Shown: in pieces, positions 26,001 through 30,948 of the stretch
Layout of the letters: every line of letters starts with the position of its first letter
Position numbering within the stretch: position 1 is the stretch's first letter
Assembly: GCF_003991155.1 (NCBI RefSeq)
Contig: NZ_CP031295.1
Strand: one strand, 5' to 3'
DNA length: 64,000 nt
From: Escherichia coli
Lineage (GTDB): Bacteria; Pseudomonadota; Gammaproteobacteria; Enterobacterales; Enterobacteriaceae
Made by a program: the position numbers

Positions 26001-29000
26001 GCGCACATTGATCGGGCTGGCATCTAACAGTTCATTCAAGCCGACGCCGCTTCGCGGCGCGGCTTAATTCAGGTGTTAGTCGGACGCCTACGGCGCCGAG
26101 GAAAAAAGAAACCAAACCATTCTTGCTGCCAAAGAGAAAAACCCCTTACGGTGGCGTACTGGGAAAGTGCGTATCTACGACGCCTTGCCGGTCTCAATGT
26201 CATGCCGTCCTCTTTCGAAGGCTGCTTGATGCAAACCTCTCAAAAATCTGGCATAAACTATCTTGACATATTCCGATTGAACACCTTCCGAATATCAGCG
26301 GCTATCAGCGGGATCTCATCTTTTTTCGTGACGTAGGAGTGGGCATTCTGCTGCAGATGAAACTGGCAGCGTTGCCACAGAATTCCAGGGAAGACAGCAT
26401 CGATTGCCGCGCGCAGTCCTGAGTGGTCATCACTGGTGATCATTCGCAGGCCGTGCATCCCTCGTCGTACGAGACCCTCGAGAAAGGAACGCCAGTTTAC
26501 CTCTGCCTCACTGTTCGCGACTTCGGCGTCAAGAATATGCCGATTCCCGCTGTAATCAACGCCAATAGCCACTAGAAGCGCCTGCTTGACCACATGGGAA
26601 CCGACGCGAACCGATTCATAGGTCGCATCAAGTACCAAGTATTGAATCTGTCCGACAGGCTGCGCCTTCCAAGACGTAATCTCTTCATCGAGCTCCTTTG
26701 CCAGCCTGCTGACCTGGGACGAGCTGACTTCGGTGCCACAAAGAATTTCGACGATATCCGAGACCCTGCGGGTACTTACTCCTTTGACATACATTTCGGC
26801 GATGGCGAGCTTGAGAGCACGCTCACTGCGCATGCCTTTCTCGATGCAGCTGGGATAAAACTCCATCCCGCGAACTTGTGGTACTTTCAAGAGGACTTTC
26901 CCGGTCGCAAGATTGAATATTGGATTATTTGGATTTACCAACAAACACTACTATTTAGCTACGAAAACTCAAGAGAAGTACACAAAACCTTTTGGAAGTG
27001 ATGGAAGTTTAAGTCCTCTTGATTATAGTGTAGGTATTGGAACAGGTTTAGAATTAGGACATTTCCAGTTTATGTTTGGCTATGATTACCCTCTTAGTAA
27101 CAGTTCGAAAGATCCAAGAGCCGATAAAATGAGATTGTATTAATCTCATTTTATCGGCTCTGCGTCTTTGCGTCTGGCTCTGTAATCACAGTTACTTTGA
27201 ACTGCTTTATTTCAATTAAATTTTCTTGTCTGCATTTCGGACAATAGAGGGGGAATTTTTTTAATTCAGTATCTTCCCTTATCTTTAATCGTGTTTTATT
27301 TCCACATACAGGACACAATATTCACTTGTAGTTTATAATAACTATCTCCTCCTTTACACTTTAATTCAAATCTTTATTAAAGAATATTTCATCTTATTTA
27401 ACAAGAAACCATATTTATATAACAACATAAAATACACTAAGTTATTTTATTGAACATATATCGTACTTTATCTATCCGACTATTTGGACGACGGGGCTGG
27501 CAAACAGGTTCACCGGTAGTAACATGGTACCCTTTTAACTCTGTTAAACAAACACTACGTCCATTTGTAAAAAAAGTTAAATCATTGCGATAATCTTGAA
27601 TACATCGAGCAGGAATTTCTCCAATAATAATGACCTCATTATTTTTCAGTTGAGTATTTACGATATTTGCACAATATTTGGGAGCATCGTTATATGCCCG
27701 TGAAAGATATTCCTGTGGTGCATAAACTTTAAAACTAAGATATGGCTCTAACAATTCTGTTCCAGCTTTTCTAAAGGCTTGCTCCAGTACAATAGGAGTA
27801 AGCATCCGAAAATCTGCTGGAGTACTAACAGGGCTATAGTATAAACCGTACTTAAAACAGATTTTACAATCCGTCACATTCCAACCATATAATCCTTGTT
27901 CGCAACCATAGCGTATCCCTTCCATAACTGCATTTTGAAATGATTGATTTAAGTATCCAAGAGAAACCGAGCTCTCATACTGCATTCCACTTCCCAACGG
28001 AAGCGGTGATACAGATAAACCAATGGAAGCCCAGAAAGGATTTGGCGGCACTTCGATGTGAATGGTATATTCTGCATTTTTTAACGGTCTCTCCATATAA
28101 ATGACTGTAGGCTCTTTTAGTTCTATCTCCACATGATACTTTTCTTGCAACAGTGCACTAATCACTTCCATTTGTACTTTCCCTAAGAAAGAAAGTATAA
28201 TTTCATGTGTCGTAGAATCCACGTAATATCGTAGAAGCGGATCACTATCTGAGATTTCCAAAAGGGCATCAAGCAACATTTCCCTTTGTTGAGGTTTGCT
28301 CGGTTCAACAGTCGTTTGCAGCAGAGGGAGGGGATTTTCAATTCTCTCTCTCTGTGGCAATAGCTTTGTATCTCCAAGAACACTATTTAACTTCAAAAAC
28401 TCATTCTGCAAAATAACAATTTCCCCGGAATAAGCCTTATCAATTTTACATAATTCACCATTTATTGAAGTATACATTTCTGTAATTTTTATTTTTTCCT
28501 TTTCCGATATTCTAACCGAATCTCGCAAATGCAGTACGCCACTATAAAGACGTATATATGCAAGACGCTGTCTTTTTTCCGAATACTCAATTTTGAAAAC
28601 TTTTCCGCAAAGTTCAGACTGACCTCGATGTGTTGATGAATAAAATTTATTCGTAATCACTTCTATAAGGTTATCAATCCCTATATTGTTTTTTGCACTT
28701 CCGTGATAAACAGGGAACAGGGAACAATTATGAAATCTTATGCTTTCCTCTTGTTCGAGTTCTAATGCTTCCAATAATTTCCCAGACGTATATTTCTCCA
28801 AAAGGTAATCATTTCCTTCTATTACCATATCCCATTGTTCAGATTCGGTAAAGTTCATTACACGCATATTAGGATGCAGTTCTACCTTCTGTTTGATTAC
28901 AATTTCCGCAGAAAGTTTCTCTTTAATATCCTGATAAACCGTTGATAAATCAATTCCATTTTGGTCAATCTTATTGATAAAAAAGATTGTGGGAATACCT

Positions 29001-30948
29001 ATTTTCCTAAGTGCATGAAACAATATACGAGTTTGTGCTTGTACGCCATCTTTTGCAGAAATCAGTAGAATTGCCCCATCTAATACTGATAATGAACGAT
29101 ATACTTCTGCTAAGAAATCCATATGTCCTGGCGTGTCTATGATGTTCACCTTCGTATTTTCCCACTGAAAAGAGGTTATTCCTGTCTGAATTGTAATTCC
29201 TCTCTGACGTTCTAAAAGCGTATTATCCGTCCTCGTTGTACCTTTGTCCACGCTTCCTAATTCTGTAATCGCTCCACTGTTATATAATAAGCTTTCTGTT
29301 AAGGTAGTTTTTCCTGCATCAACATGAGCTAAAACTCCAATATTAATAATTTTCATGTGATTTTCCTCCATTCAAAAGCCCAAAAGGGCATAAAAATCCC
29401 AGTGATAAATACTCTTATCACTGGGATTTTTATGCATAACCATAGGCATACAAAGCATACAGATATTCTCCGGATACTTTAGAATCACATGATAAAGGTA
29501 TTCTTAAACTGGGTACAAAAAACTAAGCCCTCCTAAAAAAGGACATCCAATTATTTGTTCCCACTATCAAATTGACAGTTTATTTAAGAATACCTTGCCG
29601 CATATTTATTAACTCCTTTTAAATAGATACTTAAATAATAGCACGTAAGAGCATATTTGTAAAGGAATCTCCAATTTTTTATCAAAGAGAGTACGTGATT
29701 ACAAAATAGCTGTAATAATGTACCAATATTTGTTATTCTATAATCTTCCAATTACTCCCGTTCTTTTCAAGTACCAAATCAAATTGAGATACCTGCGTTG
29801 CTTTGGTCTGCTGGTCGATATACTCCACTGTCAGCGATACCGTGACTTGATTATCCTTACGATTGTAAATAGGATTTACCAGTTCTTGAAAGATGTACTC
29901 TTTTCCGATTGGTTTTAATATCCCGTCATTCACATAGTAGGAAAGTTCACTGGCTGTCGCTGTAGGATAGAGCTTGAAGAACGTCGTTAAAAACTCATTG
30001 ATTTCATTGGTTGTAATGGAATCAACCGTACCCTCACTTTCAATAGCTTTTGGTTTATAGTCTGATTTCTTTGGTATGCTAGTAATGGTCGGATTCTTAA
30101 TGAGGACCATATTTCCAGTACTGTCTACATAGACACTCACTATATAAGCAGAGTGGACGGTCTTTGTATTTTCCCCCTCTGTAATGAGTTGGTCTACACT
30201 GGGCACTGTTGCAAAGTTAGCGATGAGGCAGCCTTTTGTCTTATTCAAAGGCCTTACATTTCAAAAACTCTGCTTACCAGGCGCATTTCGCCCAGGGGAT
30301 CACCATAATAAAATGCTGAGGCCTGGCCTTTGCGTAGTGCACGCATCACCTCAATACCTTTGATGGTGGCGTAAGCCGTCTTCATGGATTTAAATCCCAG
30401 CGTGGCGCCGATTATCCGTTTCAGTTTGCCATGATCGCATTCAATCACGTTGTTCCGGTACTTAATCTGTCGGTGTTCAACGTCAGACGGGCACCGGCCT
30501 TCGCGTTTGAGCAGAGCAAGCGCGCGACCATAGGCGGGCGCTTTATCCGTGTTGATGAATCGCGGGATCTGCCACTTCTTCACGTTGTTGAGGATTTTAC
30601 CCAGAAACCGGTATGCAGCTTTGCTGTTACGACGGGAGGAGAGATAAAAATCGACAGTGCGGCCCCGGCTGTCGACGGCCCGGTACAGATACGCCCAGCG
30701 GCCATTGACCTTCACGTAGGTTTCATCCATGTGCCACGGGCAAAGATCGGAAGGGTTACGCCAGTACCAGCGCAGCCGTTTTTCCATTTCAGGCGCATAA
30801 CGCTGAACCCAGCGGTAAATCGTGGAGTGATCGACATTCACTCCGCGTTCAGCCAGCATCTCCTGCAGCTCACGGTAACTGATGCCGTATTTGCAGTACC
30901 AGCGTACGGCCCACAGAATGATGTCACGCTGAAAATGCCGGCCTTTGA

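Follow-up and report, generated by a model that had tools for sequence, protein, structure and literature searches.

A Tn916-Family tet(M) Fragment in a Multiresistance Plasmid

A 64,000-nucleotide (nt) stretch of Escherichia coli DNA (RefSeq assembly GCF_003991155.1, contig NZ_CP031295.1), referred to below as the window, contains a multiresistance region hosted by an IncF-type plasmid backbone. Within this region lies a 3,085-bp fragment of a Tn916-family element (window positions 27117-30201) that carries an intact tetracycline resistance gene, tet(M). Read along the minus strand, in the order of transcription, the fragment consists of the 3' half of orf13, a promoter, a leader RNA of ~230 nt, tet(M), orf6, and a terminator hairpin. 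Its orf13 end abuts a copy of the insertion sequence (IS) IS26, and its other end is fused to the remains of a sul3-type class 1 integron. A first description made without database searches (the sequence-only reading) had proposed the apparent capture of a Tn916-derived tet(M) segment, with leader peptide and attenuator intact, amid IS26 and integron sequences; the comparisons presented here support this proposal, with the integron belonging to class 1, but move one of the borders.

The tet(M) gene (27437-29356, minus strand) encodes a ribosomal protection protein of 639 amino acids (aa), a GTPase resembling EF-G that frees the ribosome of bound tetracycline. The gene is intact: its product matches NF012155 over positions 1-639 of 639 with 1495.1 bits (cut-off 1420), and exactly this protein is indexed in 4866 blocks of a public sequence collection. 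An upstream in-frame ATG at 29371 merely lengthens the mechanical open reading frame (ORF), while a GGAGG ribosome-binding site is located 8 nt before the ATG at 29356. Downstream follows orf6 (27151-27318, minus strand), which had been overlooked in the sequence-only reading and encodes a 55-aa cysteine-rich KTR protein (WP_000336323.1; Pfam PF14205). Upstream, the orf13 remnant (29733-30201, minus strand; Pfam PF12642) is annotated as a partial conjugal transfer protein (TpcC domain) and retains only the C-terminal 155 aa; it aligns with residues 156-310 of the 310-aa ORF13 from an Enterococcus Tn916 left half at 95% identity. A 171-aa ORF (29733-30248, minus strand) starts with a TTG in the terminal repeat region of IS26 and runs into the orf13 remnant, but this fusion frame is probably meaningless.

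No Tn916 homology corresponding to int/xis or to the ends of the element is present in the window outside 27117-30201, and BLAST returned no match in the window to orf9 or to the conjugation module (orf23-orf13) beyond the orf13 C-terminus; the regulatory set orf9/orf7/orf8 is missing. With the integrase, excisionase, regulatory, and conjugation genes gone, the fragment cannot move as a Tn916 element.

Promoter, Leader RNA, and Attenuator

The region upstream of tet(M) has been preserved in full. The native promoter, Ptet (29629-29663, minus strand), was identified in a promoter scan and combines a -35 TTTACA, a 17-nt spacer, and a TG-extended -10 TATTAT (29640-29635), spanning 29663-29635 in all, with 10 of 12 matches plus the TG. 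It is invariant across four aligned copies, among them the Neisseria copy, whose sequence further upstream diverges; promoter and leader together are invariant or nearly so in the Enterococcus, Staphylococcus, and Neisseria copies. The leader RNA is recognized by the Rfam model RF02864 (Enterococcus small RNA 30, i.e., the tet(M) 5' leader RNA, also srn0030 or Ptet leader), which matches 29412-29576 on the minus strand over its full length (1-165) with 194.9 bits (gathering score 123, E = 2.3e-43). A preprint on Enterococcus faecium identifies the RF02864 RNA as the tet(M) 5' leader (Ptet) and reports a start site mapped by rapid amplification of cDNA ends; counted from this site, the leader ATG occupies +172 to +174 and the terminator +205 to +239 (10.1101/2021.03.24.436905). 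If the leader ATG at 29458 is set at +172, transcription would start at the T at 29629, 6 nt past the -10 element; the same mapping puts the terminator (positions 205-239, which were deleted in that study) at 29425-29391, i.e., on the attenuator hairpin described next.

The leader peptide ORF, orf12 (29372-29458, minus strand), has 28 codons (29458-29375) and a stop codon (29374-29372) and encodes MLCMPMVMHKNPSDKSIYHWDFYALLGF. Its preservation, claimed in the sequence-only reading, holds: the translation was checked, and the peptide matches all 28 of 28 positions of NF011335 with 88.8 bits (cut-off 71). The window has four substitutions in the leader peptide region: one upstream of the leader ATG, two synonymous, and one that replaces Ile4, found in three reference copies, with Met4. 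Overlapping the ORF is the leader terminator, or attenuator (29388-29435, minus strand), a perfect 21-bp stem (29388-29408 paired with 29415-29435) with a 6-nt loop and a U-run in and after its 3' arm. The perfect hairpin noticed earlier at 29393-29431 is therefore real but larger than was thought, with 21-nt arms. Stem and U-run together form a Rho-independent terminator located downstream of the promoter and ahead of the tet(M) ribosome-binding site, and the 261-nt leader region as a whole folds with -98.9 kcal/mol (z = -9.0). Low-scoring Rfam microRNA matches at this hairpin and at the one after orf6 (22-28 bits against gathering scores of 41-100) were dismissed as generic hairpin matches.

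Two smaller leader features may be related to the E. faecium work. An early terminator-like hairpin followed by a U-run (29527-29544, minus strand) lies ~85-110 nt after the putative start site and would be consistent with the ~100-nt leader transcript reported there (10.1101/2021.03.24.436905). An intact 12-codon mini-ORF (29353-29391, minus strand) begins in the 3' arm of the terminator, and its stop codon overlaps the tet(M) start (ATGA), an arrangement that may allow translational coupling; it corresponds to the “second peptide” that was found by toeprinting to be ribosome-bound (10.1101/2021.03.24.436905).

Boundaries of the Fragment

Where does the Tn916-type sequence end on the side away from the leader? 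In a four-way alignment of the window with a sul3 integron context and the Staphylococcus aureus and Neisseria gonorrhoeae copies of tet(M), the window tracks the sul3 context through 27116 and then the Tn916-type sequence of the two latter copies from 27117, with a 1-bp overlap at the junction. To the left of this point, 26195-27116 matches the qacL-IS440-spacer region of the sul3 integron in pHXY0908 with 99.9% identity. Its last 222 bp (26895-27116) are an AT-rich, non-Tn916 spacer that ends at the junction; in pHXY0908, this spacer separates an IS256-family (IS440/IS406) fragment from sul3 in an integron with the order aadA2-cmlA1-aadA1-qacL-IS440-sul3. In a BLAST search with 26895-30201, many tet(M)-free enterobacterial plasmids matched the 222-bp spacer alone, with 100% identity. 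The sequence-only reading had begun the segment at 26890, an edge that is ruled out by the alignment to both the sul3 integron and the Tn916-type copies. The error is easy to understand, because the spacer and the fragment have nearly equal GC contents (35.6 and 35.4%, against 52.4% for the window), which explains why a reader working without tools would merge them. BLAST found no other Tn916 or sul3 DNA elsewhere in the 64-kb window.

Placing the junction at 27116/27117 sets the length of the fragment at 3,085 bp and changes the meaning of two features nearby. First, a perfect hairpin with 19-nt arms and a 5-nt loop (27118-27160; -38.2 kcal/mol, z = -8.3) becomes the first feature inside the fragment. 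The sequence-only reading took it for the end of an unrelated AT-rich ORF fragment. The spacer does lack any relation to Tn916; the hairpin, in contrast, represents the Tn916-family orf6/orf9 intergenic terminator. Its counterparts in the S. aureus and N. gonorrhoeae copies lie downstream of orf6 and adjoin orf9, and in Gram-positive copies the hairpin sits between orf6 and the convergent orf9; relative to orf9 as positioned in the Neisseria copy, the fragment starts 25 bp past the stop codon. Second, a 76-aa ORF (26913-27143), labeled “hypothetical protein” by RefSeq, spans the junction and is hence a chimera.

The right edge is exact: the inverted repeat of IS26 begins at 30202, which bears out the earlier claim that an orf13-like fragment is cut by IS26 at 30201/30202. 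The description of the segment as bounded by IS26 holds for this side only; on the other side, a non-IS junction leads into the sul3 integron spacer and then into the IS256-family fragment.

The left junction is best explained by illegitimate recombination between the sul3 spacer and the foot of the terminator hairpin after orf6. Could the hairpin itself have directed this event? A more far-reaching proposal combines such hairpin-directed recombination at the foot of the 19-bp stem with a role of the tet(M) leader as an antibiotic-sensing riboregulator that acts in Enterobacteria through the 12-codon mini-ORF, independently of the orf12 peptide. Drawn from position and conservation, this combination is quite improbable. 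Another integron-associated tet(M) capture, found in a Salmonella Uganda IncC plasmid (L022), was considered as a possible second case of a breakpoint at the hairpin foot, and the idea was rejected: in L022, where tet(M) lies between two intI1 genes, the Tn916-type sequence includes an additional 87 bp of orf9 and breaks off within the leader, so that the promoter and most of the leader are missing. That the second capture has a different breakpoint argues against a hairpin hotspot.

Gram-Positive Origin

A Tn916-family origin of the fragment is well supported by comparisons at the nucleotide level, and its GC content (35.4%, against 52.4% for the window) likewise marks it as foreign DNA. Relative to the left half of Tn916 in Enterococcus faecalis pEFT30-1, the fragment is 95.4% identical over 2864 nt and colinear in the order orf13, leader, tet(M), orf6, hairpin; relative to the tet(M) plasmid copy of N. 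gonorrhoeae, it is 97.0% identical over 2570 nt. The differences are clustered in blocks, which makes this tet(M) allele a mosaic relative to the Enterococcus copy. Such block clustering is the familiar mosaic pattern of tet(M) alleles. When one genome per species was scanned for an exact 33-mer taken from the orf13 remnant where it is most divergent, only four genomes matched, all of them Firmicutes. Their loci are short, and the identities cover part of the fragment rather than all 3,085 bp, as given by the stored overlaps: Holdemania massiliensis, 100% over 795 nt; Anaerosporobacter mobilis, 99.25% over 1741 nt; Streptococcus parasanguinis, 99.2% over 1013 nt; and S. pneumoniae, 97.1% over 2327 nt. 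In the two of these genomes that were checked (A. mobilis and S. pneumoniae), the sequence runs beyond the IS26 cut, colinear with the Tn916 conjugation module. An exact-protein look-up gave only enterobacterial contexts among those read, as the longest contigs come first in such a look-up.

Two findings had been named beforehand as able to overturn the sequence-only reading, namely flanks unlike Tn916 or a tet(M) that is not expressed. The flanks proved to be Tn916-like, and modules of this kind confer resistance on E. coli according to published work (PMC6340991; 10.1101/2021.03.24.436905). Compared to the Tn916 family of Enterococcus, Streptococcus, and clostridial Firmicutes, the fragment has the same order (orf13-orf12 (leader)-tet(M)-orf6-terminator), 95-100% nucleotide identity, and the same promoter, leader RNA, and terminator; it differs in retaining only 3.1 kb of an ~18-kb element, in the mosaic tet(M) allele relative to the Enterococcus copy, and in Met4 in place of Ile4 in the leader peptide. 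In all likelihood, the fragment is the relic of a Tn916-family conjugative transposon of a Gram-positive (Firmicutes) donor, reduced to 3,085 bp by an IS26 cut at the orf13 end and by recombination of the other end with the spacer of a sul3 integron. Through this spacer, the relic is linked to the dfrA12-orfF-aadA2-cmlA1-aadA1-qacL-IS440 class 1 integron, and it is now carried passively in an IS26/IS1006-bounded, Tn6942-like resistance region of an IncF-type plasmid.

Expression and Attenuation in an Enterobacterial Host

Is this relic functional in its new host? The TG-extended promoter is a good match to σ70 and usable in E. coli, and transcription of tet(M) would start there; the majority of transcripts would end at the leader terminator, with read-through into tet(M) rising in the presence of tetracycline. 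Published work is consistent with both parts of this scheme. E. coli transconjugants that have acquired only tet(M) show a tetracycline minimum inhibitory concentration (MIC) of 128 mg/L, compared to 1 mg/L for the recipient (PMC6340991), and tet(M) with its native promoter and leader confers an MIC of 64 mg/L on E. coli EC1000 (10.1101/2021.03.24.436905). In E. faecium, tetracycline induces terminator read-through and raises tet(M) mRNA 10-fold (10.1101/2021.03.24.436905). Taken as a whole, the locus is very probably a captured Tn916-family relic that produces Tet(M) from its own promoter, plausibly still under attenuation, and that would protect ribosomes of the enterobacterial host. The identity, completeness, boundaries, origin, and prevalence of the module come from the present analysis, while resistance in E. 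coli and read-through in enterococci are taken from the literature.

Several points weigh against this account. The MICs were determined with related, non-identical modules (the Tn6539 type or an Enterococcus allele). Whether sul3 was deleted or the fragment inserted to create the left junction is a matter of reconstruction. No donor species can be named from the comparisons, given that the best Gram-positive loci span part of the fragment and that tet(M) alleles are mosaic. Continued operation of the attenuator in an enterobacterial host is no more than plausible. Finally, the classical leader-peptide model is itself disputed: conversion of the leader ATG to TGA left the MIC in E. coli unchanged, still at 64 mg/L, and no toeprint of a ribosome was observed on the leader ORF (10.1101/2021.03.24.436905).

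The last result also fits a different scenario, in which the leader and terminator are passive relics in the enterobacterial host. Expression of tet(M) would then be constitutive and not regulated by tetracycline, owing either to a leaky terminator or to transcripts that run through from upstream, where the IS26 transposase gene and the orf13 remnant lie. The L022 plasmid, which has kept tet(M) although it has lost the promoter and most of the leader, is in line with such constitutive expression. Yet the promoter, the whole leader RNA, and the perfect 21-bp terminator are free of disabling changes in hundreds of enterobacterial copies; intrinsic terminators function in E. coli; and the induction of read-through, confirmed in enterococci, requires the terminator stem-loop (10.1101/2021.03.24.436905). 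Passive carriage of the leader is a serious alternative, though less likely than not.

IS26 and the Question of Mobility

The IS26 copy at the orf13 edge (30202-31021, minus strand) is 820 bp long, has perfect 14-bp terminal inverted repeats (GGCACTGTTGCAAA), and encodes an IS6-family transposase that matches NF033587 over positions 1-202 of 202 with 275.6 bits (cut-off 125). It is identical to the copy at 5621-6440. The flanking sequences, CTACACTG and ATTTTACT, differ, i.e., there is no 8-bp target duplication around this copy, a situation more in keeping with cointegrate formation or recombination than with simple insertion in situ. In a third copy (36040-36859), three positions (553, 736, and 773) are substituted relative to the other two. 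The leftmost bracket of the tet(M)-integron region, a 16.2-kb unit extending from 14796 to 31021, is an 819-bp IS6-family element (14796-15614) that has the 14-bp inverted repeats of IS26 yet only 75.6% nucleotide and 85% aa identity to it; RefSeq assigns it to the IS1006 family, and a search based solely on inverted repeats would mistake it for a fourth IS26. A reading of the unit as bounded by IS26 on both sides was rejected on account of the IS1006-like left element.

These details matter because the published relatives Tn6539, Tn6709, Tn7124, and Tn6942 have been called IS26-flanked composite transposons, and a circular intermediate of Tn6942 was detected (PMC8193513). By analogy, the tet(M) segment could be an active pseudo-compound transposon, or translocatable unit, with IS26 on both sides and moving by IS26 transposition. 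Among some Enterobacteriaceae, two contexts (L011 and L013; positions 4399-9177) indeed have a second IS26 ~170 bp past the junction, which leaves an insert of ~3.3 kb between the two IS26 copies; this arrangement is a candidate minimal translocatable unit derived from that of the window. In the window itself, the neighbor of the fragment on the left is an integron, not IS26, and the next element leftward that resembles IS26 is the IS1006-like one, so that the segment is not bracketed by two IS26 copies; 8-bp target duplications are absent both around IS26 30202-31021 and around the 16.2-kb unit; and for Tn6709 and Tn7124 no circular form was found and the authors favor recombination (PMC7347964, PMC11539080). 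Active IS26-driven movement of the segment is accordingly unlikely, and we retain the reading of a relic that travels passively with its surroundings.

Integron and Plasmid Surroundings

The integron that received the fragment (20250-26894) comprises intI1, dfrA12, orfF, aadA2, cmlA1, aadA1, qacL, and the IS440/IS406 fragment, with sul3 lost; the spacer that would normally lead to sul3 gives way, after 222 bp, to the tet(M) fragment. The IS440/IS406 fragment typical of sul3-type class 1 integrons (26258-26894, minus strand) is an internal piece of an IS256-family transposase gene downstream of qacL; it matches profile positions 36-244 of 338 of NF033543 with 228.7 bits, is identical to the sul3 integron context, and appears in RefSeq as a partial IS256 family transposase.

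The resistance region as a whole reads, from left to right, Tn3-family fragment, IS26, sul2, ISCR2-floR, IS1006-like element, TnAs3 tnpA and tnpR, integron, tet(M) fragment, IS26, and IS debris. A second resistance module (8252-13933), between IS26 5621-6440 and the IS1006-like element, contains sul2 (8252-9115), an ISCR2/ISVsa3-type transposase gene (9680-11173), floR (11618-12832), and a relaxase-like fragment (13049-13933). Among IS fragments on the right, just upstream of IS26 36040-36859, lies a full-length rclA gene for a reactive chlorine resistance oxidoreductase (34591-35943; 870 bits against a cut-off of 740), a chromosomal-type stress gene that is unusual in a plasmid resistance region.

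Prevalence and Significance

The arrangement seen in the window is far from rare. Some 200 plasmid records, as well as 128 of 5426 complete E. coli genomes, contain the junction-to-junction segment 26700-30400 (3.7 kb) at 100% identity; the plasmids belong to E. coli, Salmonella, and Shigella of pig, poultry, human, and wastewater origin. The entire 16.2-kb unit (14796-31021) is found at 100% identity in at least 30 plasmids from the same three groups. IS26 lies at the same upstream distance in all ten contexts of the identical Tet(M) protein that were read. Variants that have acquired an extra IS26 at the equivalent of 26947/26948 retain the 27116/27117 junction; the junction is thus older than the short units with IS26 on both sides of tet(M).

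One could still ask whether the present plasmid, and no other, took up this fragment recently and independently from a Gram-positive source. Enterobacteria did capture tet(M) more than once: their other modules have different breakpoints and 96-97% identity, as in the Tn6539 type, which is adjacent to a Tn3 tnpA (96.3%), and in the IncC Salmonella copy between two intI1 genes, and these differences indicate that tet(M) entered Enterobacteria several times. Uniqueness, by contrast, is refuted by the occurrence of both junctions and the full 3.7 kb at 100% identity in ~200 plasmids and by the shared IS26 position in the ten genomic contexts, leaving a private acquisition with next to no chance of being correct. 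The window carries the most widespread enterobacterial version of tet(M).

The practical weight of the module is epidemiological: it adds ribosomal protection resistance, including resistance to minocycline and doxycycline, to plasmids that already have floR, sul2, dfrA12, aadA, and cmlA. It is also a textbook case of gene flow from Gram-positive to Gram-negative bacteria, fixed by IS26 and integron contexts. The refinements offered here are small: the “hypothetical protein” next to orf6 is a junction chimera, and the junction predates the short IS26-flanked variants. The first tet(M) described from E. coli, by Jones et al. in 2006, was reportedly flanked by IS26 and ISVs1 and expressed from its own promoter.

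Comparison With Published tet(M) Elements

The module, its junctions, and the carrier region are already known from Tn6942, Tn7124, and Tn6539. The closest relative is Tn6942 of Salmonella plasmid pS13-3 (CP047092; PMC8193513), an IS26-flanked unit with tet(M) and an intI1-dfrA12-aadA2-cmlA1-aadA1 integron: window 19674-31025 is 99.98% identical to it over 11,352 bp. The shared stretch comprises IS26, the orf13 remnant, the leader, tet(M), orf6, the spacer, the IS440/IS406 fragment, qacL, aadA1, cmlA1, aadA2, orfF, dfrA12, and intI1; in both, IS26-Δorf13-lp-tet(M) is linked to the dfrA12-aadA2-cmlA1-aadA1-qacL integron through the IS406/IS440 fragment. The published string for elements of this type, [quoted passage not shown] describes the same order, and a “Tn6942-like” fragment is also present in E. 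coli pTA7 (PMC11539080). The two part ways at the far end: Tn6942 continues with TnAs1 tnpR/tnpA and a second IS26, for a reported size of 16,493 bp, whereas the window has TnAs3-type tnpR/tnpA genes (~78% identical) followed by the IS1006-like element, for a total of 16,226 bp.

Tn7124 of E. coli pTA2 (PMC11539080) has the order IS26-ctp-lp-tet(M)-hp-IS406tnp, with the same IS26/orf13 junction, and its “hp” is the chimeric 76-aa ORF; five of the contexts read (L006-L010) show the Tn7124 arrangement. Beyond the IS406 fragment, Tn7124 continues with an integrase gene and a second IS26, for a size of 7.2 kb, while the window continues with the cassette array of the class 1 integron. More distant are Tn6539 and Tn6709 of E. 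coli and Salmonella (PMC6340991, PMC7347964), which likewise carry a truncated orf13, the leader, and tet(M) in IS26-flanked plasmid regions and confer resistance to tetracycline and doxycycline; “Δorf13-lp-tet(M)” has been described as a highly conserved fragment in E. coli (PMC6340991). These modules belong to another capture lineage: they are 96.3% identical to the window only over 27267-30057, have a Tn3-family tnpA upstream and Tn1000 sequence downstream, and contain neither orf6 nor the sul3-spacer junction that marks the fragment in the window.

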